Below are positions 6,346 to 63,366 of a DNA stretch of 64,000 nt, piece after piece. The stretch covers positions 9,258-73,257 of the forward strand of contig CAYGGK010000002.1 of NCBI GenBank assembly GCA_964349555.1. Reading direction: 5' to 3'. Positions within the stretch are counted from its first letter, which is position 1. Each line of letters starts with the position of its first letter. Position numbers and translations under genes: made by a program. Source of the DNA: an uncultured Candidatus Saccharibacteria bacterium (GTDB lineage: Bacteria > Patescibacteriota > Minisyncoccia > Phycocordibacterales > Phycocordibacteraceae). Under the pieces are notes generated by a model. The model saw only the letters and a list, made by a program, of their open reading frames with translations. It searched no databases and was not told the origin of the DNA.

Positions 6346-6798
6346 TTAGAATGGGATGTCCTCGGGATTAATCTCCTCGTCTGGATACTTAATCGACTCG
6401 TCATCCCTTCCGCCGGAGGCGGACCCGCCTTCGGCGGGCGGTTCCCCAACTCCTTGTCCGCCCCTCCCGCCATCGGCACCGAATTGGAAATTGTCCACGA
6501 CAATCTCGGTACGGTAATTTTTCTTTCCGCTCTCCTTATCGTCCCACGAGCGCGTCTGGATGCGCCCTTCAACAAAGATCCCGCGACCTTTTTTCATATA
6601 CTGCGCGATAACCTCGGCTGTCTTGCCGAATGCAACAATATTGTGGAACTCGGTCGCCTCTTGTTTTGCACCACTCTTATCCTTATAGGTACGGTTTGTC
6701 GCGATGCCGAAATTCGCGACACTGCCGCCAGACGGGAGCGCCTTCAGCTCCGGATCGCGGGTAAGGTTGCCATAGAGTAATACTTTGTTGAGGTACAT
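6346..6798 (-). CDS. ssb: single-stranded DNA-binding protein with Gly-rich acidic tail (tail carries an inserted palindromic element)
   Basis: MYLNKVLLYGNLTRDPELKALPSGGSVANFGIATNRTYKDKSG... OB fold; C-terminal DEEINPEDIPF tip; rpsF-ssb-rpsR synteny. Confidence 0.9.
   Translation of the reverse strand: MYLNKVLLYGNLTRDPELKALPSGGSVANFGIATNRTYKDKSGAKQEATEFHNIVAFGKTAEVIAQYMKKGRGIFVEGRIQTRSWDDKESGKKNYRTEIVVDNFQFGADGGRGGQGVGEPPAEGGSASGGRDDESIKYPDEEINPEDIPF
6410..6437. repeat. family-1 palindromic element inserted in-frame in the ssb tail (encodes PAEGGSASGGRD)
   Basis: CCGCCGGAGGCGG-AC-CCGCCTTCGGCGG; one arm mismatch. Confidence 0.85.
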
Positions 6799-7349: not shown

Positions 7350-8168
7350 TCAGGGTAACCCATTCGACAAGCTCAGGGTAAATAGGCGCTCCGCGTTCTT
7401 ACAGAGAGTGGCGCGGACGGTTTCGAGGTCGTCGCCTCTTATTTCTGCGATTTTTGCGACGACTTCTACGACGGCGAGAGGGTCGTTCCGAGACCCGCGG
7501 CGACTCGCGGGCGCAACATAGGGTGCATCGGTTTCAGAGAGAATACTCTCGAGCGGTAGAGCCCTTATGACGTCGTCATAGTCGCGCGCGAAGGTGATCA
7601 CTGCGGTAAATGAAAGAGTGAAGTCAAGCGCGATAAGCGCCTGCGCTTCTTCTAGGCCGCCAACAAAGAAGTGTATATCGCCGCGCAACTTGGGAAACTT
7701 GATTTTCGCTTCTTTCAAAATCTCTATCAAATCATGGTATGCATCTTGAGTACCTTTACTCGGGCGAGAATGAATAATGAGCGGTTTATCAAACTCAGCG
7801 GCAAGAATAACTTGGTCATTGAGTATCGCCTCTTGCTTTTGTTTTACCTCGTCATTTATCTGAGCCGGGCGGTAGTAATCGAGCCCGCATTCCCCTATCG
7901 CGACAACCTTCGGGCTCTTTGCTAGTTCTCGGTATTTATCTACTTCATACCACTCATTACTCTCTCTATTGGGATGGAGCCCGACAGAAGCGAAGAGGTG
8001 CTCGTGTTTTTCAGCGAGCGCCACCGCTTTTCTTGAAGACTCCAGGTCAACGCCGACGACAATGCCTGCAACACTCTCTCTACTCATCCGCTCTATGAGC
8101 TCTGCATCATCGGTTTCGTATTGTTCAAACTGTATGTGGCAGTGCGCGTCCACATATTTTATGTTCAT
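7350..8168 (-). CDS. tatD: TatD-family metal-dependent DNase/hydrolase
   Basis: MNIKYVDAHCHIQFEQYE... HxH motif, TIM-barrel amidohydrolase signature; start ATG overlaps metG stop (ATGA). Confidence 0.85.
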   Translation of the reverse strand: MNIKYVDAHCHIQFEQYETDDAELIERMSRESVAGIVVGVDLESSRKAVALAEKHEHLFASVGLHPNRESNEWYEVDKYRELAKSPKVVAIGECGLDYYRPAQINDEVKQKQEAILNDQVILAAEFDKPLIIHSRPSKGTQDAYHDLIEILKEAKIKFPKLRGDIHFFVGGLEEAQALIALDFTLSFTAVITFARDYDDVIRALPLESILSETDAPYVAPASRRGSRNDPLAVVEVVAKIAEIRGDDLETVRATLCKNAERLFTLSLSNGLP

Positions 8169-9610
8169 AATCCTGCCTGCGCAGGCAGGCGCGGGAATAG
8201 GTTGTCCGGCTTTTTGTTTTCAAATACCGCCCTTTTTACCGCCTCGCACGTCGCCGGCATAAATGGGCTGAGGAGTATGGCTATCTGATAGAGCTCGGTA
8301 GCGAGCTCTCTGATGATAATACGTCCTTTTTCTACGTCCTCTTTTACAAGCTTGAAAGGTTCTTCGTGTGTAATGCGTTCATCGAGTCTTTGTATACGAC
8401 TCCAAACAAGATCCATCGCACGATTGAATTCAAACGCATCTATCATGTCCAAGTATTCTCGCGGAAACACGGGCTCTCCCGAGAGGATAACGGGATCTTC
8501 AAGATGAGTTTCGGCGAGCTTCATCACGCGCGCGACAAGGTTACCGAGGCCGTTCGTCAGATTTGCCGTGTACCACTCATCAAGGCGTTCCCAAGTGACG
8601 TCCGAGTCTTCCACCGGGTGGACGTGGCGCAGGAGTATATACCGTGTCGCGTCAGTGCCATATTTCTTCACGAGTTCGTAGGGACTGATAACATTGCCCA
8701 AAGACTTGCTCATCTTCTGCCCGCCACTCGTTATGAATCCGTGGTAAAAGACCGTGTCGGTTGTCTTACTGTCTGCCGACATCAGCATCGCTTGCCACAT
8801 AAGCGACTGAAATCGTACTTGGTCCTTTCCTGCTACCTGAAGCGTTGTTCCCTCTTCCCAAAACTTCTTGAAATCTCCTTGCTCGTCTTCGGGCCAACCG
8901 AGCGTGGAAATATAATTAGTGAGCGCATCAAACCAGACATACATCACCTGCGAATCATCATTCGGGACCGGAATGCCCCATGAGAGCCGTTTTTTCTCGC
9001 GCGAGATGCTGAAATCTTCAAGCCCACCTTTCACAAAGGCAATCGCCTCTTCTTTCCGCCATTCGGGGATGATGACACCGGGACGAGACAGGTATTCGAG
9101 CAGGCGATCATCATATTTCGAGAAGCGGAAGAAATAATTCTCTTCGGTTATCTCCTGAAGTTTCAGATTGGTGTGGGTGGTGCAATGATCGTCCGCTATT
9201 TCTTTCTCGGTTTTGAACGATTCGCATCCTACACAGTACACACCCGTATAGGCTTTCTTGTAGATGTCGCCCGCGATGTCGCACCGCCGCCACATTTCGG
9301 CCGCTGCCGCGTAGTGGCGCCGTTCTGTGGTGCGAATGAAAACATCGTTTGAGAGGTCAAGTGCGGTGCCGAGCTTTCGGAATTCGTCCGCATAGTGATC
9401 GACGTATGCATGCACGTCCTGTCCCGCTTTCTCTGCGGCTTCGTATATTTTCTGGCCGTGCTCGTCGGTACCAATCGAGAAAAAGACATCATTGCCCGCA
9501 AGCCGCCACGCGCGCGCGAGTGCATCTGCCTGAACGAATTCAAGCGCGTGCCCAAGGTGCGGATCCGCGTTCACATACGGGAGCGTCGTGGTGACGTAGC
9601 GCACACTCAT
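8165..9610 (-). CDS. metG: methionyl-tRNA synthetase (class I, no C-terminal tRNA-binding domain)
   Basis: PYVNADPHLGHALEFVQAD (HIGH region), KMSKSLGN, zinc knuckle CVGCESF. Confidence 0.9.
   Translation of the reverse strand: MSVRYVTTTLPYVNADPHLGHALEFVQADALARAWRLAGNDVFFSIGTDEHGQKIYEAAEKAGQDVHAYVDHYADEFRKLGTALDLSNDVFIRTTERRHYAAAAEMWRRCDIAGDIYKKAYTGVYCVGCESFKTEKEIADDHCTTHTNLKLQEITEENYFFRFSKYDDRLLEYLSRPGVIIPEWRKEEAIAFVKGGLEDFSISREKKRLSWGIPVPNDDSQVMYVWFDALTNYISTLGWPEDEQGDFKKFWEEGTTLQVAGKDQVRFQSLMWQAMLMSADSKTTDTVFYHGFITSGGQKMSKSLGNVISPYELVKKYGTDATRYILLRHVHPVEDSDVTWERLDEWYTANLTNGLGNLVARVMKLAETHLEDPVILSGEPVFPREYLDMIDAFEFNRAMDLVWSRIQRLDERITHEEPFKLVKEDVEKGRIIIRELATELYQIAILLSPFMPATCEAVKRAVFENKKPDNLFPRLPAQAGL
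8172..8189. repeat. 18-bp perfect palindrome CCTGCCTGCGCAGGCAGG (family 2) forming the last codons of metG (..LPAQAGL*) next to the tatD start
   Basis: Seen in sequence; identical copy at 62987..63004 in holA. Confidence 0.8.
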
Positions 9611-10720: not shown

Positions 10721-12115
10721 TTATTCAATGGCGGAGCGGATACGGGAGGCGACTTCGGGAATGGAGAGGCGCTCTTGTTCGCCTGAGTCACGGTGGCGGA
10801 GTGTGACGGTATCTTTTCCGCCGGAGGCGGACCCGCCTCCGGCGGGGAGTTCTCCCAACGTTTCAAAGTCTATGGTAATGCAGAAAGGCGTACCGATCTC
10901 GTCTTGGCGGCGGTAGCGTTTGCCGATGTTGCCGTTATCGTCCCATGCGATTGCAGGATGGACTTTCTTGAGCTCGGCGCGCACTTCCCTCGCCTTCGCG
11001 ACCAGCTCGGGCTTATTCTTCAACAAGGGCGAGACCATCGCTTTTATCGGCGCGACCTTAGGCGAGAGCGCGAGATACGTGCGGGTTTCTTCACCCATAG
11101 TGTCTTCGCGATACGCATCAACTAATACGGCGAGAAGCATTCGCCCTACGCCGACTGACGACTCTATCACGTATGGGATAATTCTTTCTTTTGTTTCTTC
11201 ATTAAAATAACTCAAATCCTGTCCGCTCGCTTTTGCGTGATTCGTCAAATCGAAGTCAGTTCTATTATGAGTACCCCAAAGCTCCTTAAAGCCCTGTGGA
11301 AACTTGAAATAAATATCGTGCGCAGCAGAGGCGTAATGGGCGCGTTCGTTCTCTGCATGCTCGTGCCACTGCAGATTCTCCTCGCGTACACCAAGCACAT
11401 CGGTCATAAAATTCCACGCAACGTTCCTCCACGTTTCGTAAGCGACGGTCTGTGTTTCTGAATTGATAAAATACTGCATTTCCATTTGCTCGAGCTCGCG
11501 AACACGAAATATGAAGTCGCGTGGTGCTATTTCATTTCTAAATGCTTTCCCTATCTGCGCGATACCAAACGGCAATGCAGGATGAATTGTATCAATAACA
11601 TTTTTAAAATTCGTAAAAATAGATCCCGCTGTTTCTGGACGCAAATAGGCGACAGAAGAATCGTCCTCAATAGGGCCAACCCACGTCTTCATCATCATAT
11701 TGAACGTGCGTGGTGGTGTAAGTGTTTTTTCACCACAGGTTGGACACGCCGCATCGGTAAGAAGGTTGGTCAATTCAGCGATATTTGTACTGTCAGTTCC
11801 AGCAAGATGGTCGGCACGAAGCCGTGCTCCACAATTCTTACAATCAACAAGAGGGTCGGTAAATCCTGCAACGTGCCCGCTCGCCTCCCACAATTTCGGG
11901 TTCTGAATGATGGCGCCGTCAACACCAAAAATATCGTCTCTCTCTTGCACTATTTTGCGCCACCACAATTGCTTTAGGTTGTTTGCCAATTCGACACCAT
12001 ACGGCCCATAATCCCAAAAGCCTGCTATGCCTCCGTATATTTCACTCGCGGGGAAGACAAACCCGCGGCGCTTGCAAAGCGAGACGATTTTTTCCATCAA
12101 CTGCGAGTCGGCCAT
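10721..12115 (-). CDS. glyQS: glycyl-tRNA synthetase (dimeric class II GlyQS type)
   Basis: MADSQLMEKIVSLCKRRGFVFPASEIYGGIAGFWDYGPYGVELANN... class II motifs; start at internal Met (12115), since the ORF-track extension has no homology and would overlap the upstream gene. Confidence 0.9.
   Translation of the reverse strand: MADSQLMEKIVSLCKRRGFVFPASEIYGGIAGFWDYGPYGVELANNLKQLWWRKIVQERDDIFGVDGAIIQNPKLWEASGHVAGFTDPLVDCKNCGARLRADHLAGTDSTNIAELTNLLTDAACPTCGEKTLTPPRTFNMMMKTWVGPIEDDSSVAYLRPETAGSIFTNFKNVIDTIHPALPFGIAQIGKAFRNEIAPRDFIFRVRELEQMEMQYFINSETQTVAYETWRNVAWNFMTDVLGVREENLQWHEHAENERAHYASAAHDIYFKFPQGFKELWGTHNRTDFDLTNHAKASGQDLSYFNEETKERIIPYVIESSVGVGRMLLAVLVDAYREDTMGEETRTYLALSPKVAPIKAMVSPLLKNKPELVAKAREVRAELKKVHPAIAWDDNGNIGKRYRRQDEIGTPFCITIDFETLGELPAGGGSASGGKDTVTLRHRDSGEQERLSIPEVASRIRSAIE
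10818..10845. repeat. family-1 28-bp palindromic element CCGCCGGAGGCGG-AC-CCGCCTCCGGCGG inserted in-frame in the glyQS C-terminal domain (encodes PAGGGSASGGKD)
   Basis: Perfect 13-bp inverted arms; near-identical copies at 6410, 50082 and 50627. Confidence 0.85.
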
Positions 12116-14033: not shown

Positions 14034-14603
14034 TCAAAGGCCAGAGGCGTCGAGACCGTTATTGATGCGCACGATGTATTTTGTGCGATTTTTTGAAATA
14101 TCGGCAAGCGGCTCCGGAGCGAACATAGACACTCCGCTCGGAATGTCTCCCGCATCAAGTCCGAGCGCTGACAACACGTGAAGCGCGGCGAGCACTTCGG
14201 CGGCCTCATGCGTTTCTTCAGGAAGCGTGGCGAGTGTTTCAAAAAATCCTCTGATGATTTGGGAAAGCGCCGGATCGCGAATTTCGCCGGCAACGAGGCG
14301 GAGCAGGAGACTAGAGATGCGTCCCGCTCGCGTGCGCGACTCGGCACCGCCGAGCCGCATGAACCAGTTTTCTGCGAGAACGGCCCCCGCGACTCTCCAG
14401 CCTTCTTTCCCGCGCACGAGCACGACGTCGCTCTCGGCAAAAGTGGTGAGCGCCGCGGCGAGCTTTGCGCCTGGACGGCGAAGTCCTTGCGCCCGCGCGC
14501 GCACAAGGCCTACATCGACAGTAATGAGTGTAACGAATGCATTCGCCTCTCCGAGCGGTGAACGAGAGAGTACGATGCCGCGTGTCTCGTATTTATGCCG
14601 CAT
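14034..14603 (-). CDS. recO: DNA repair protein RecO-like (short form)
   Basis: N-terminal OB-fold region MRHKYETRGIVLSRSPLGEANAFVTLITVDVGLVRARAQG characteristic of RecO; 189 aa. Confidence 0.6.
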   Translation of the reverse strand: MRHKYETRGIVLSRSPLGEANAFVTLITVDVGLVRARAQGLRRPGAKLAAALTTFAESDVVLVRGKEGWRVAGAVLAENWFMRLGGAESRTRAGRISSLLLRLVAGEIRDPALSQIIRGFFETLATLPEETHEAAEVLAALHVLSALGLDAGDIPSGVSMFAPEPLADISKNRTKYIVRINNGLDASGL

Positions 14604-17600
14604 CAGAAACGAGATTAAACTGCACGGTGCCCGTCGAGAGCGTGGCTGAGTACTTCCCTGCCTGACCGGCGGTCAGGCCCTCCGGCCGAATCTCGACGCG
14701 TACTTTATCTTTCGGCGAGAGCCCTTCCGTTTTACGCGCTTCGGCGACGGCGCGCGCCATCTCGCGCTCATCGCCTTCCTTAATGAGGGAGGGCGTGAGG
14801 ACCGCATCGAGAGCAAGTTCTTCGCCTACAATTATCTTTTTCACATTCACCTCCTCAGCGAGAAGCTGAGCCAGCTCACTACTAAGCGCCCCGATGACAG
14901 TGAGGCTCGCGAGCGGTTGCCGTACTTTAATTCCGGCCTTCTGTCGCAGTTGTAGCGCTTCTGATGCGAGGGCGCGCACGCGGTTCATGTCGGCGACAAC
15001 CTTCCTTTTCTTGCTTCCGCCAAAGAGTTCCCACTTCCCCTGTATCAGAGGCCAATCGGCAAGATGTACGCTTTCCGAGTCACTGGTCTCTCGGACCTCT
15101 TGAAAGATTTCTTCAGCGATGAACGGCATAACGGGCGCCGCCACTTTAGAAAACTCCTTGAGTACCTGCCGCAGAGTAGAGAGCGCATTCGCCTTGTCTC
15201 CATCATCGTCACTTTTCACCCGATCACGAGAGCGGCGTATATACCACGTTGAAAAGTCGTCAATAAATTCGCGCATCGGTCGTGTGGCGTGTGGGACGTC
15301 ATAGCGGTCGAATGCCTCGGTTGTCGTTGCTACAAGTTCTTCGAGTCTGGCGAGAATCCAACTGTCCAGAACATTTTTACTCATAGCATTGGCAGGCCCG
15401 GCATCATCTTTATAGAGCACGTAAAAGGCGAGGATGTTTCGTAGCATGTTTACCACCCGCGCATGTACCTCCTTTATTTCTTCGTCGCGAAAGGTAATAT
15501 CTTCGGCCTGCATCACAACCGACGACATAAGGTAAAAACGGAACGCATCAGCACCGTAACGATCAAAGAGCTCGTATGGATCAGTATAATTCTTCTTACT
15601 CTTTGAGACTTTTGCGCCGTCAGCGGCAAGTATGTTGCCGGTCGTAATAACGTTTCGAAATGCAAGACGACCAAAAACCTCTATTCCTATTGCGTGCAGA
15701 TAGTAAAACCATGCGCGCGTTTGTCCGATATATTCTGAGACGAAGTCTCCTGGCGAACGCTTTTCAAACTCTTTTTTATTCTCGAACGGATAATGGTATT
15801 CGGCGAACGGCATGGAGCCGGACTCCACCCAACAATCAACAACTTCAGGAACGCGCGTGAGCGTATTCCCCTTCTCATCTTCAAGCTGAATTTGGTCAAT
15901 GTACGGCAAGTGGAAATCAAGCTCGTAATCGCGATTGTGCGGAAGCGGTATAAAATCGAGCTTGCGCAGGCTGGCAGTCTTCGCGTAGAGGGGCCAGACG
16001 AGCCTGAGCGACTCTTTCTTGTCAGCGCCGAGCGCGACGGAGCCGAGCGCTTCAAATCCAATACCGTGTGTAACAATCAAGATAGTCTGGTTCGTCTGAC
16101 TTCGCTCAATTTCATACAAGAATTCTCCAAAACGATTCTTAGCGTCCTGATAACTCTCGCCGCCCGGGACGTGGTCGTCAAACTGACGTGCATCCCGGTA
16201 AGCCTGAAACTCCGTCACGGGCCGATTGTTAAGCTCTCCAAATTCAAACTCGCGTAGACGGTCATCATAAATCACCGCCTCTTTGGGGATTTTAAGCTCC
16301 TCAACAATAACTTCGACCGTTTCGCGCGTACGTTGAAGCGGCGAGGCATACACACGCGTAGGGCGCGGCAGGGTGGGCGCTACCGCTTTAACCTCAACCC
16401 TCCCTTTGTCTGTAAGAGGGTTCCCTATTCGACTATTGCTTGCGATCCCTTTTACATTGTTTTCTGATTCGCCGTGGCGCATCACGAAGTACGTGTTGCC
16501 TGATTTCTTCGTGTGTTTCTTAAGTTCTTCAAGAGACCCGACGACCGTTACGTTTCCTTTTTCATCCTTCCAGATAGGGAGCGGACTGGCCCAGAAGCGA
16601 TTACGAGAGATGGTCCAGTCAGGCGCAGTCTCGAGATTGTGTTTGAAGCGGCCCTCTTTAAGGTGTCCCGGAACCCAGTTGATTTTCTCGCTCTCAAGAA
16701 GCATCTTCTCTTTTACATCTTGAATGTTTATGAACCAGCTTGAGACGGCATTGTAGATAAGAAGCGTGCCGCAACGGTAACAGTGCGGATACGAGTGGGT
16801 GTGTGAGGCTTTCGCGAATAACAGACCGCGGCTCTCCAGGTCTTCTTTAATTAAATGTTCTGCTTTTTTAATGTATTGTCCGCGCAAGAATTCCGGCGCA
16901 TCATCGTTGTACGTTGCGTTCGGATTCAAAAGCGGCACCATCGGCAACCCCTCTTTCAACCCAAGATTGTAATCGTCCTCTCCGTAGATGACAGCGGTAT
17001 GCACGATACCTGTTCCTTCCTCGGTGTGTACGAAATCTGCCGGGAGCACCTGCCACTTCTTGCCTGCGTACTCTTTTACTTTTTCCACTGCGTAGAGCGG
17101 TTCGTAGGTGAGGCCAACCAGTTTTCCCCCAGACAGCTTCTGTAAAACTTCGGCACCGGGCAGAATGGCAGACAGCCTCTCTTCTGCAAGCCAGACATCT
17201 CCCTTGTCAGTGTGCGCAAGTACGTACTGGATTTCAGGCCCAACGGCCAAGGCGACATTCCCGGGAAGCGTCCACGGAGTGGTAGTCCACGCGAGGAAAT
17301 ACTCGTTTTCTCTCCCTATAATCTTAAACTTGATCGTTACCGCCTCTTCGGTGATGTCTTTGTAGGTATTGTCCATCGCGATTTCCGCTTTTGCGAGAGG
17401 CGTCTCGCAGTGCGGACAGTACACAAGCACTTTCCTACCCTCATAGAGCCGACCTCTTTTATGAATTTCCTTGAGCGCCCACCACACACTCTCAATGAAC
17501 GAATTGTCCATCGTCTTATATGAATTGTTGAAATCAACCCACCGCCCAACACGCTCAATGTATCGCTTCCAGTCACGCACATATTCGAGGACTAGGGAGC

Positions 17601-17949
17601 GGGCAGTCTCGTTAAATTTTTCTATGCCGAGTGCGAGTATTTCTTTTTTATTCTTCAATCCGAGTCTTTTCTCCACTTCCGACTCTATCGGGAGCCCGTG
17701 AGTGTCCCAGCCCCATCGGCGACGCACATAATAACCGCGCATCGTTTTGTAGCGCGGTATAAGATCTTTCGATACCGAGGAGAGCAGTGAGCCGGAATGT
17801 GGCAGCCCTGTTGCAAATGGCGGGCCGTCATAAAAAGTAAACTCACCTTTCGGGGACTTCTTCGCGAGCGATTTCTCAAAGATGCGTTCTCGATCCCAAA
17901 ATGCGAGTATCGCCTCTTCGCGTTTCGCAACCTCTGATTTCTCTAGCAT
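14593..17949 (-). CDS. ileS: isoleucyl-tRNA synthetase (type 2) containing an inserted histidine-phosphatase (PGM-like) domain
   Basis: PPFATGLPHSGS (HIGH-like), editing-domain WTTTPWTLPGN / GTGIVHTAVIYGEDDY, WTISRNRFWASPLPIW, KVSKS (KMSKS-like), then an insertion at residues ~483-676 with RHGESENN ... SPLQRTRETV ... IVTHGIGF. Confidence 0.9.
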   Translation of the reverse strand: MLEKSEVAKREEAILAFWDRERIFEKSLAKKSPKGEFTFYDGPPFATGLPHSGSLLSSVSKDLIPRYKTMRGYYVRRRWGWDTHGLPIESEVEKRLGLKNKKEILALGIEKFNETARSLVLEYVRDWKRYIERVGRWVDFNNSYKTMDNSFIESVWWALKEIHKRGRLYEGRKVLVYCPHCETPLAKAEIAMDNTYKDITEEAVTIKFKIIGRENEYFLAWTTTPWTLPGNVALAVGPEIQYVLAHTDKGDVWLAEERLSAILPGAEVLQKLSGGKLVGLTYEPLYAVEKVKEYAGKKWQVLPADFVHTEEGTGIVHTAVIYGEDDYNLGLKEGLPMVPLLNPNATYNDDAPEFLRGQYIKKAEHLIKEDLESRGLLFAKASHTHSYPHCYRCGTLLIYNAVSSWFINIQDVKEKMLLESEKINWVPGHLKEGRFKHNLETAPDWTISRNRFWASPLPIWKDEKGNVTVVGSLEELKKHTKKSGNTYFVMRHGESENNVKGIASNSRIGNPLTDKGRVEVKAVAPTLPRPTRVYASPLQRTRETVEVIVEELKIPKEAVIYDDRLREFEFGELNNRPVTEFQAYRDARQFDDHVPGGESYQDAKNRFGEFLYEIERSQTNQTILIVTHGIGFEALGSVALGADKKESLRLVWPLYAKTASLRKLDFIPLPHNRDYELDFHLPYIDQIQLEDEKGNTLTRVPEVVDCWVESGSMPFAEYHYPFENKKEFEKRSPGDFVSEYIGQTRAWFYYLHAIGIEVFGRLAFRNVITTGNILAADGAKVSKSKKNYTDPYELFDRYGADAFRFYLMSSVVMQAEDITFRDEEIKEVHARVVNMLRNILAFYVLYKDDAGPANAMSKNVLDSWILARLEELVATTTEAFDRYDVPHATRPMREFIDDFSTWYIRRSRDRVKSDDDGDKANALSTLRQVLKEFSKVAAPVMPFIAEEIFQEVRETSDSESVHLADWPLIQGKWELFGGSKKRKVVADMNRVRALASEALQLRQKAGIKVRQPLASLTVIGALSSELAQLLAEEVNVKKIIVGEELALDAVLTPSLIKEGDEREMARAVAEARKTEGLSPKDKVRVEIRPEGLTAGQAGKYSATLSTGTVQFNLVSDAA
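14657..14677. repeat. family-2-related palindrome CCTG-CCTGACCGGCGGTCAGG in the ileS C-terminus (encodes GLTAGQAG)
   Basis: Shares the CCTGCCTG arm with the metG/holA elements; centre differs. Confidence 0.5.
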
Positions 17950-24358: not shown

Positions 24359-24392
24359 AAACCGCCCCGACAGCTCCGCTGTCGGGGCGGTT
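24359..24392 (-). terminator. strong hairpin terminator downstream of rplK (AAACCGCCCCGACAGC-TCCG-GCTGTCGGGGCGGTTT flanked by A/T runs)
   Basis: 16-bp perfect stem with flanking A- and T-runs (bidirectional potential). Confidence 0.7.
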
Positions 24393-24403
24393 TCTGTATA
24401 AAA

Positions 24404-25704: not shown

Positions 25705-25723
25705 AGTGAAATAGTCAGGTTAA

Positions 25724-25762
25724 CCCAGCACCTAATTTTTGTTGCAAAAATTAGGTGCTGGG
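25724..25762. repeat. long perfect hairpin (18-bp stem CCCAGCACCTAATTTTTG / CAAAAATTAGGTGCTGGG, 3-nt loop) upstream of secE
   Basis: Seen in sequence; intergenic. Confidence 0.6.
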
Positions 25763-25786
25763 TGAAATAAAAAAGCCCTGCGGGCT
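25763..25786 (-). terminator. rho-independent terminator for the SIMPL-domain gene (GCCC-GCA-GGGC + TTTTTTATTT on minus strand)
   Basis: Short GC stem followed by a T-run on the minus strand. Confidence 0.5.
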
Positions 25787-43118: not shown

Positions 43119-43181
43119 CACAAGTAGCAGAACGGCTCATATACGCCGTATATGAGCCGTTCTGCTGATATAATTCCCGAG

Positions 43182-50605: not shown

Positions 50606-50712
50606 TCGCGGAATCTAGAGCTTTGCCCGCCAGAGGCGGGTCCGCCTCTGGCGGAAAAACTAGCGGGCCAAAAGCCCTTGTGGGTTCGAGTCCCACCCCT
50701 TCCGCAGATGAT
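50606..50712 (+). other. tRNA-like element (5' GCGGAAT..., 3' GTGGGTTCGAGTCCCAC-CCCTTCCGCA) disrupted by or containing a family-1 palindrome at 50627..50654
   Basis: Good T-arm and 3' acceptor-like strand, but no canonical D/anticodon arms; the palindrome plus flanking CTAG..CTAG occupies the central region. Confidence 0.4.
50627..50654. repeat. family-1 palindromic element, perfect copy CCGCCAGAGGCGG-GT-CCGCCTCTGGCGG inside the tRNA-like locus
   Basis: 13-bp perfect arms; central dinucleotide GT (reverse orientation relative to plus-strand copies at 6410/10818/50082). Confidence 0.85.
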
Positions 50713-62697: not shown

Positions 62698-63366
62698 TTA
62701 TATTGAAAGAGCGAAACGCTCGAGGGAAAGGGAGAGGTCGAGGTCGCCACGGCGAGAGGACTGGAGGAGAGAAATAAGAGAGAGAGAAAGCGCGCGAGAT
62801 TCATTCGGCTTCCAGGCGCGACTTCCTTTTTCCATCAGGTCGCGTGCCTTCCAGTGGAGGAGGCCGTGGAGCATCTCGGGCGCGTCACCCTCCCGAAGCG
62901 CGCGGTTGATTTCAAGCCAGAGTTTCTCGCGTGAACGGTTCGCGAGTGCATTTACAAGATTGGCGTTGAATCCTCTTTCGGTTGTCCCTGCCTGCGCAGG
63001 CAGGTCGTATTTGTATTCAACTTTTGCCTTCGCGGCGAGCTTCTTCGCCTTCGCCAGCGCAAGCTTAGGAGCAAGAATAATGATCGCATTGTCAGACGCG
63101 GCGAGAGTGTCAAGATGTTCTTCAAGAATACTTTTCGTTTCTTCGTCCTCCTCATTTTTTTGAAACGGGTCGTCAATAAGTATAAGGAGCCGTTTAACGA
63201 AGAGCCCACCTGAGAGCGCCGCGTCTTCAAACGCGGCGCTCGACAACTCCTCGCGCGCGAGACGCACGTAGGCGAGGTTTGGCTCTTTCGCGCGCGCGCT
63301 CGCGACCCACTCAAATGCTTTCGCTCGTGTCTTTGAGACATCGGAGCCGTGAAATAAGTAGATCAT
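62698..63366 (-). CDS. holA: DNA polymerase III delta subunit (HolA), short form
   Basis: MIYLFHGSDVSKTRAKAF.. typical HolA N-terminus; carries a family-2 palindrome (DLPAQAGT). Confidence 0.65.
   Translation of the reverse strand: MIYLFHGSDVSKTRAKAFEWVASARAKEPNLAYVRLAREELSSAAFEDAALSGGLFVKRLLILIDDPFQKNEEDEETKSILEEHLDTLAASDNAIIILAPKLALAKAKKLAAKAKVEYKYDLPAQAGTTERGFNANLVNALANRSREKLWLEINRALREGDAPEMLHGLLHWKARDLMEKGSRAWKPNESRALSLSLISLLQSSRRGDLDLSLSLERFALSI
62987..63004. repeat. family-2 18-bp perfect palindrome CCTGCCTGCGCAGGCAGG in-frame in holA
   Basis: Identical to 8172..8189. Confidence 0.8.

Follow-up and report, generated by a model that had tools for sequence, protein, structure and literature searches.

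An exactly conserved 18-bp perfect palindrome, CCTGCCTGCGCAGGCAGG (hereafter the 18-mer), is a superphylum-wide insertion in the Patescibacteria (candidate phyla radiation, CPR), where it is often translated in frame within unrelated housekeeping genes. Our starting point was a 64,000-nt stretch of an uncultured Candidatus Saccharibacteria bacterium (contig CAYGGK010000002.1, positions 9,258 to 73,257; the whole stretch is called the window below). The original prediction, made from the letters of this window, had described an independent palindromic family translated in frame in metG, holA and, as a variant, ileS. Going by the names of its nearest protein relatives, the organism is one of the Patescibacteria, near Kaiserbacteria and Paceibacteria. 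The family is real and reaches far beyond that description: further copies are abundant in other genomes, and the translated segment is not conserved in orthologues of the host proteins. The literature was searched for the 18-mer, for the string LPAQAG, and for palindromes in Patescibacteria, and no published description was found.

As predicted, two exact copies were present in the window, at 8172-8189 (copy 1) and 62987-63004 (copy 2). When up to 3 mismatches were allowed, the window returned the same two matches only, compared with 0.05 expected by chance, and at least two matches were obtained in 0 of 100 shuffles. Both copies lie within minus-strand open reading frames (ORFs) and are read in one common frame, C CTG CCT GCG CAG GCA GG, which gives LPAQAG. 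Copy 1 supplies the LPAQAG codons near the C-terminus of metG (8165-9610, minus strand), which encodes a methionyl-tRNA synthetase (MetRS) of 481 aa with the MetRS Pfam domains. The protein ends in ...FPRLPAQAGL*, and the tail PAQAGL is missing from most orthologues. The tatD-family hydrolase gene (7350-8168, minus strand), whose TatD identity was checked, lies 4 nt downstream of copy 1, and the metG stop codon overlaps the tatD start as ATGA, in agreement with the predicted arrangement. Copy 2 encodes residues 122-127 of a short (222 aa) holA-like protein, DNA polymerase III delta (62698-63366, minus strand), within the peptide ...YDLPAQAGTTERGFN and just past the N-terminal domain, which bears out the mid-protein position given for it. 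The match of this ORF to TIGR01128 (E=1.5e-9) was under the family cutoff and confined to the N-terminal domain. The gene dnaN was located at L236:1-837, ~9-10 kb past the right end of the window and ~10-65 kb from the window copies; should dnaN mark the vicinity of the replication origin, both copies may be fairly close to it. A motif shared by the flanks of the two copies, GGTTGTCC, had also been considered meaningful. It was rejected as part of the element: an 8-mer is shared within +/-40 nt in ~13% of random position pairs, which puts the match at chance level, and at copy 2 the motif overlaps the first base of the palindrome.

The DNA of close MetRS relatives illustrates that the 18-mer is inserted as a block of exactly 18 nt and leaves the target site unduplicated. 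Among 120 MetRS relatives, 114 ended at ...NLFPR(L), mostly with 0-3 further residues, and lacked the LPAQAG tail, whereas the six tail carriers ended in LPAQAGL(DK), LPAQTGI, LSAQSGV or LTAQAGLP. The carriers were scattered, and the nearest relative of each was one without the insert, at identities of 93% (P0169/P0198), 88% (P0158/P0223), 87% (P0139/P0146), and 79% (the window protein and P0122); monophyly of the insert-bearing MetRS alleles was rejected on this evidence. In the 93% pair, the filled allele (L201) reads ...TTCCCGCG[CCTGCCTGCGCAGGCAGG]GCTCGAC and the empty allele (L203) reads ...TTCCCGCGACTCGAC, so that the difference is exactly 18 nt and no target bases are duplicated. The 88% pair (L207/L208) showed the same +18 nt at the same codon, the filled copy carrying one mismatch, and the MetRS copy in L205 showed three changes, all of them synonymous. 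The insert of the L201/L203 pair sits within a ~250-nt patch of 72-77% identity in a background of 89-91%. The flanks of the L207/L208 pair were, if anything, more alike than the background, and the differences were limited to no more than 8 nt beside the insert. Because the filled and empty orthologue DNA could be compared, the insertion point of copy 1 can probably be placed within the Arg codon of ...FPR|L (CCGCG^A TTA TGA). Without the 18-mer, the window metG reads ...TTC CCG CGA TTA TGA, that is, FPRL*, the common MetRS ending.

In HolA, the insert was carried by 17 of 120 relatives, and the remaining 103 had a different linker. The HolA carriers did not cluster on the protein backbone (mean identity of 0.786 within the group and 0.794 between groups), and their nearest neighbours were carriers at chance frequency only. 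Monophyly was therefore rejected for the insert-bearing HolA alleles as well, and in both proteins these alleles are polyphyletic among orthologues. The HolA carriers have the residues after the insert in common (LPAQAG-KPE, compared with KPAAREDA in the common allele); therefore, the segment in common exceeds the 18-mer. Copies also decay. At the holA site, the window and L131/L132 have the exact copy, L162 and P0008 a copy with one mismatch, and L134 and L198 copies with three mismatches, both of the latter from a variant in which the centre has changed symmetrically from GCGC to GTAC (CCTGCCTGTACAGGCAGG); further proteins carry the degenerate peptides LSAQAS, LPANAR, and LPAQSD. In the P0008/P0112 pair (92% identity), a ~60-nt divergent tract starts at the palindrome, and the surrounding DNA is almost identical. 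Such short divergent tracts, which accompany the insert in some cases, point to short-patch homologous recombination between lineages. From these alignments we infer that the primary events were block insertions and that the insert-bearing alleles then passed between lineages by this kind of recombination.

Further copies were sought in one genome per prokaryotic species, and the counts are lower bounds. At least 120 stretches from other genomes contain the exact 18-mer; these hold 125 copies in unrelated flanks. Among the stretches listed, 71 were labelled Patescibacteria and came from many lineages, including WWE3, Microgenomates groups, Saccharibacteria, Dojkabacteria, Uhrbacteria, Magasanikbacteria, and many Paceibacteria/Parcubacteria groups; 15 others were Bacteroidota-type and ~10 were labelled Gammaproteobacteria or Pseudomonadales. 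Many carriers have a G+C content of only 32-45% (32-40% in some CPR carriers), and composition therefore does not explain an 18-mer of 72% G+C. For a few G+C-rich carrier genomes, a chance match is plausible. The carriers were mostly metagenome-assembled genomes (MAGs). Two of them, Litoribacter ruber and Rosettibacter primus, are cultured isolates, and the same insert-bearing alleles were found again in independent assemblies and projects, which argues against an assembly artefact. A phage origin was rejected, as the 18-mer occurred in only 25 stretches among 2.9 million viral contigs. The Bacteroidota copies have the same core, placed in intergenic regions together with many other repeats and hairpins. 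In one Sphingobacteriales MAG (L012, L033, L071, L077, L083, and L102), the flank modules pair differently between copies, as if they had been exchanged at the palindrome.

Outside the 18 bases, the sole positional signal in the flanks of the 125 copies was a purine at -1 and a pyrimidine at +1, and no target-site consensus or duplication was detected in these flanks beyond this bias. In an all-against-all BLAST of +/-200 nt, clusters were formed only by the Sphingobacteriales repeat family, a tRNA-Gln context described below, and a few orthologous pairs, and a longer conserved element around the 18-mer was rejected on the basis of these few small clusters. Flanking repeats of at least 8 nt, direct or inverted, were mildly enriched (11% vs 2% and 8% vs 1.5%), and no transposon bounded by CCTGCCTG...CAGGCAGG was found in the CPR loci. 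The 880 kb of ascertained loci contained five extra exact copies, five one-mismatch copies, and none with 2-3 mismatches. Within 358 kb around holA orthologues, the DNA was without the element apart from the holA site and one 2-mismatch copy. On a 598-kb contig, the copies were dispersed, at ~41, 151, and 344 kb.

The length of CCTGCCTGCGCAGGCAGG is divisible by three, and the sequence itself shows no stop codon in any frame; therefore, it never breaks an ORF. Among the copies in ORFs of at least 100 aa, LPAQAG was encoded in 61 of 89, PACAGR in 16, and CLRRQ in 12, which is ~7 standard deviations off equal use. All three frames occur, as do noncoding DNA and pseudo-tRNA contexts. Copies persist mainly in the frame that gives the benign LPAQAG, at protein termini or in inter-domain linkers. 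Twenty CPR host genes were compared with Pfam and proved to be ordinary housekeeping genes, such as those for TopA, PolA, GatB, CysRS, ArgRS, GyrB, and DnaG, two class II aminoacyl-tRNA synthetases (aaRS), a Mur ligase, aminotransferases, and others, with the insert often between domains or near a terminus. This sample favoured long ORFs, and no functional enrichment is therefore claimed. The whole palindrome is the unit of the element, and its half-site is not enriched: outside full copies, the 9-mer half-site was counted 29 times in 1.35 Mb, against a mean of 13.7 and a 95th percentile of 39 in composition-matched controls. A 20-nt variant whose centre is two bases longer, CCTGCCTGC-CG-GCAGGCAGG, was found, with its one-mismatch form, at L181:1100 and L103:486. 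As a single strand, the 18-mer is predicted to fold into a 7-bp stem with a GCGC loop, at -6.5 kcal/mol as DNA and -11 kcal/mol as RNA. The Rfam search returned tRNAs only and no family at the palindrome copies.

The sole conserved context was found in five Paceibacteria-type genomes, in which a tRNA-Gln fragment or second copy, adjoining an intact tRNA-Gln, has the 18-mer between its nucleotides 10 and 11. Small single-domain GIY-YIG genes (PF01541, E=1e-13 to 1e-17) stand beside the 18-mer in L027, L038, and L110, the last a pseudogene, and a GIY-YIG gene (PF01541) lies 0.4-1.3 kb from it in L009 and L080. In L037, the adjoining ORF is HNH endonuclease-like by sequence, with no Pfam or NCBIfam match; in L042, the 18-mer is in the tRNA-Gln fragment with no nuclease gene. 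Small GIY-YIG genes numbered 8 per 880 kb in palindrome-centred loci vs 1 per 467 kb in control loci, an excess that is suggestive and based on small numbers. More generally, the tRNA-Gln genes of Paceibacteria-type genomes were observed to be hotspots for small free-standing GIY-YIG or HNH-like ORFs and to have a duplicated 5' tRNA fragment that the 18-mer interrupts at position 10/11 (L027:1700-2110, L037:3500-4020, L038:6730-7200, L042:340-490, L080:6200-6640, and L110 around 728 on the minus strand).

We tentatively favour, with rather less than even confidence, a reading in which the 18-mer is a non-autonomous hairpin mini-element that is made or moved in trans, survives where six benign residues are tolerated, and spreads by short-patch recombination. 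An enzyme that recognises the sequence or the structure would generate new exact copies in trans, with the element's hairpin form in single-stranded or broken DNA as its substrate. Near the copies, the small single-domain GIY-YIG nucleases, of the Ssn kind discussed below, and the HNH nucleases at the tRNA-Gln cassettes are the sole candidates seen. For the host, the 18-mer would be selfish or neutral and not functional. By analogy with published systems, it is best explained as the shortest-scale analogue of the hairpin repeats known as repetitive extragenic palindromic sequences (REPs) and Ssn-related motifs (SRMs) and of the Rickettsia palindromic elements (RPEs).

Several points weigh against this reading. 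To our knowledge, 18 bases is far below the size of any element recognised by a transposase. The 18-mer has neither a GTAG/CGTC tag nor, by inspection, a fit to the published SRM consensus. Its density is low, with 2 copies per 64 kb in the window and 358 kb of relatives nearly empty outside holA. The GIY-YIG enrichment consists of raw counts, 8 vs 1 genes. The HolA insert allele differs from the common one by +6 and -5 codons, and the primary insertion is not observed at that site. No nuclease or transposase candidate was found in the 64-kb window or in the ~9 kb past its right end. The genes between paired copies (L015, L033, L094, and L219) looked ordinary on inspection of their translations, and no transposase or nuclease stood out among them, no profile search for Y1 transposases having been made. 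Finally, a purely selfish element would not readily be expected to keep one identical sequence throughout a superphylum, unless its enzyme is conserved or often transferred.

Among published systems, the Ssn family of GIY-YIG nucleases, which cut single-stranded DNA beside hairpin repeats (NTS/SRM) conserved across phyla (PMC11893778), appears to be the closest, and the resemblance would be mechanistic only. The repeats of this system (NTS/SRM and dRS3, with SsnA) resemble the 18-mer in being G+C-rich hairpins with a core found across phyla; they are associated with small single-domain GIY-YIG genes (PMC11893778), and small GIY-YIG genes adjoin some copies of the 18-mer. However, SRMs are ~28-30 nt long, asymmetric, marked by a GTC tag, repeated hundreds of times, and mostly intergenic, whereas the 18-mer is tagless, perfectly symmetric, low-copy, and mostly intragenic. 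The SRM consensus is HGTCWYN(0-2)YYVSBRHN(0-5)WNVSBRGN(0-2)RNCYNB (PMC11893778). On inspection, no GTCWY flank accompanies the 18-mer, and the stem misfits YYVSBRH; given this misfit and the missing GTC tag, the 18-mer is not an SRM member. A few non-CPR copies (L065, L072, and L076) do have GTCATT-type flanks.

REPs, which also occur as bacterial interspersed mosaic elements (BIMEs), are likewise short hairpin repeats thought to be mobilised in trans, by REP-associated tyrosine transposases (RAYTs), without target duplication (PMC3733652). One end of their palindrome bears a terminal tag of four nucleotides, GTAG or CGTC (PMC3733652). They differ from the 18-mer in being imperfect palindromes of 20-40 bp that are extragenic, high-copy, and lineage-specific. 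No such terminal tag was present in the flanks of the 125 copies, which showed the purine/pyrimidine bias only, and the extragenic, high-copy pattern was absent as well, most CPR copies lying within long ORFs. RPEs resemble the 18-mer as palindromes inserted in frame in unrelated, often essential genes and translated at tolerated positions (PMC10969869). However, they measure ~100-150 bp, form several families, and are confined to Rickettsia, whereas the 18-mer is one exact sequence found across a superphylum and beyond. The 18-mer shares with RPEs and with MITEs (miniature transposable elements with inverted repeats) the in-frame insertion in unrelated ORFs at sites where orthologues lack it; it has neither the size of RPEs nor the MITE features (at least ~50 bp, terminal inverted repeats, and target-site duplication), and no bounded longer element was found.

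The PstI palindromes of Neurospora mitochondria have an 18-nt core, CCCTGCAGTACTGCAGGG. They belong with yeast GC clusters and sponge and fungal hairpins among the G+C-rich mitochondrial palindromes. Such palindromes resemble the 18-mer in being small and scattered in A+T-rich compact genomes (PMC8811140, PMC2800124). They lie at times in coding regions or beside tRNA genes and are suspected to be mobile by a mechanism that is not known (PMC8811140, PMC2800124). They differ in being organellar, mostly 30-60 bp long (the Neurospora core excepted), often flanked by target duplications, and species-specific in sequence.

A rather unlikely alternative to the hairpin mini-element is that the 18-mer is an uptake or recombination signal, such that transformation-dependent Patescibacteria prefer palindrome-bearing DNA and insert alleles spread horizontally. 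DNA uptake sequences (DUS) and uptake signal sequences (USS) are likewise short, exact, clade-wide motifs, linked to recombination and frequent in coding DNA, where they occupy the frame that does least harm and residues of poor conservation (PMC2817400), and the frame bias and the placement of the 18-mer at poorly conserved positions fit this description (PMC2817400). The alternative also accords with the patchy, polyphyletic insert alleles at the same site in both MetRS and HolA, with flanking tracts that seem to be co-transferred (L201/L203 and P0008/P0112), with hosts that are often conserved replication or aaRS genes (TopA, PolA, GyrB, DnaG, HolA, and several aaRS), and with a type IV pilus/T2SSE ATPase encoded on the source contig. 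However, DUS/USS are asymmetric 9-12-mers that arise by point mutation and occur about once per kb, in hundreds to thousands per genome. The 18-mer originates by insertion of an 18-nt block, its half-site is not enriched, and its density is at least 30-fold lower; at ~1 per 32 kb, and near zero in 358 kb of relatives, it falls one to two orders of magnitude short of an uptake signal. Moreover, the L207/L208 pair is a clean indel without an imported tract, and the same 18-mer is found in Bacteroidota and other phyla as well.

It is improbable that the 18-mer serves the host, whether as the binding site of a dimeric protein (of the parS, operator, or nucleoid kind) or as an RNA hairpin for processing, stability, or translational coupling. 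As with parS, its 18-bp symmetry is kept exactly, in few copies, among genomes that are very divergent, and both window copies lie within ~10-65 kb of dnaN. The stable hairpin predicted for both RNA and DNA, and the location of copy 1 only 4 nt before the tatD start, would also suit such a role. Yet the 18-mer does not keep its positions: it is missing from most orthologous MetRS and HolA sites and from the 358 kb of origin-proximal DNA of relatives. Copies decay, in one case by purely synonymous changes, they lie in the middle of genes, in pseudo-tRNA fragments and in all frames, and no Rfam family matched them. The symmetric centre variant CCTGCCTGTACAGGCAGG preserves the symmetry, but this change may be explained by double deamination of a CpG. 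The canonical parS, TGTTNCACGTGAAACA, was not found at up to 2 mismatches in the window or in L236, and it has no sequence in common with the 18-mer. Origin clustering of the parS type was rejected, given the dispersed copies on the 598-kb contig and the absence of the 18-mer from most orthologous origin-proximal loci.

We regard as quite improbable a scar of double-strand-break repair, in which the 9-nt CCTGCCTGC would be added to both 3' ends in a templated or protein-directed manner and the ends joined head to head. The same 9 nt on both 3' ends, joined in this way, would give a sequence and its reverse complement without a spacer and without target duplication, which is the form of the perfect palindrome observed. 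The 20-nt variant would then have two extra junction bases, the fixed position 10/11 in the tRNA-Gln fragments beside homing-type GIY-YIG/HNH genes would be a plausible cleavage site, and the differences of L207/L208 cluster within 8 nt of the junction. Nevertheless, no known enzyme has this activity and none came to light here, no single half-units were seen at rearrangement junctions, half-sites are not enriched, only two centre-length variants were found, and the sharing of HolA alleles requires recombination anyway. Selection for the peptide LPAQAG, a chance match, or an assembly or technical artefact can hardly account for the 18-mer, despite the predominance of the LPAQAG frame, a MetRS copy that retains the peptide through three synonymous changes, and the many MAGs among the carriers, since identical G+C-rich codons recur in genomes of 32-40% G+C, 28 of the 89 long-ORF copies are in other frames and others in noncoding DNA and tRNA fragments, the chance expectation in the window is 0.05, cultured isolates and independent assemblies carry the copies and alleles, and decayed copies and clean empty orthologous sites are evolutionary signatures, not technical ones.

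It is possible, if doubtful, that the 18-mer is the smallest active mobile DNA yet described: a bare 9+9 palindrome with a dedicated enzyme shared widely among Patescibacteria and some Bacteroidota and Proteobacteria, working by hairpin cut-and-paste or by symmetric addition of 9 nt to the ends at breaks. The 18-mer would ride between lineages on recombination in conserved housekeeping genes and add six residues to core proteins of replication and translation. Confirmation of the finding would move the known size limit for repeated or mobile elements downwards and provide a sequence bait for the recognising enzyme. The 18-mer would also serve as a natural marker for recombination between lineages of Patescibacteria, whose genetics and DNA uptake are hard to study, and the filled and empty alleles at identical MetRS and HolA sites would make this recombination directly measurable. 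Small insertions in aaRS, polymerase, gyrase, primase, and topoisomerase could confound annotation and phylogenetics. It would become testable whether Ssn-type GIY-YIG nucleases or the competence machinery have sequence-specific targets in the superphylum.

The third site of the original prediction, a related copy in ileS, held in part. The sequence at ~14657-14677 is real and encodes GLTAGQAG, but it is a different palindrome, GCCTGACCG-G-CGGTCAGGC (19 nt, 14660-14678), and not one of the 18-mer family. It lies in a 21-nt in-frame insertion (14659-14679, minus strand, boundaries ambiguous by ~2 nt) that adds GLTAGQA, which none of the 60 aligned IleRS orthologues has, and no other copy of the insertion was found in 1.6 Mb of fetched DNA. 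The ileS insertion is the same kind of event as the 18-mer, yet by sequence not a family member. The IleRS gene (14593-17949, minus strand, 1118 aa) also contains an internal histidine-phosphatase domain (PF00300, residues 488-665, E=1.6e-32), which is placed between parts of the catalytic core.

Other palindromes were also noted. A distinct family, CCGCCrGAGGCGG-N2-3-CCGCCTCyGGCGG, occurs in the window at 1422-1450, 6410-6438, 10818-10845, and 50627-50654, and also at L020:4642, L185:279, and L188:475; it is probably the first palindrome family of the original prediction. Its sites lie within FtsK, the SSB tail (..PPAEGGSASGG..), and a class II aaRS-like ORF (..LPAGGGSASGGK..), and beside a tRNA. 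A third cross-genome palindrome, TCCGCCAGCTGGCGGA, was found in unrelated genomes (L066:2079, L082:1715 and 7273, L097:7450, L105:4962, L107:5738, and L112:5470); five of the seven sites are within ~200 nt of an 18-mer, and the sequence is at times the core of a longer hairpin. Long perfect hairpins in the window were located at 43126-43166, 25723-25763, 24359-24393, and 63214-63241. In three of them the arms measure 20, 19, and 16 bp, the hairpin at 43126-43166 lies between two tRNA genes, and one with 11-bp arms sits within the holA-like ORF itself.

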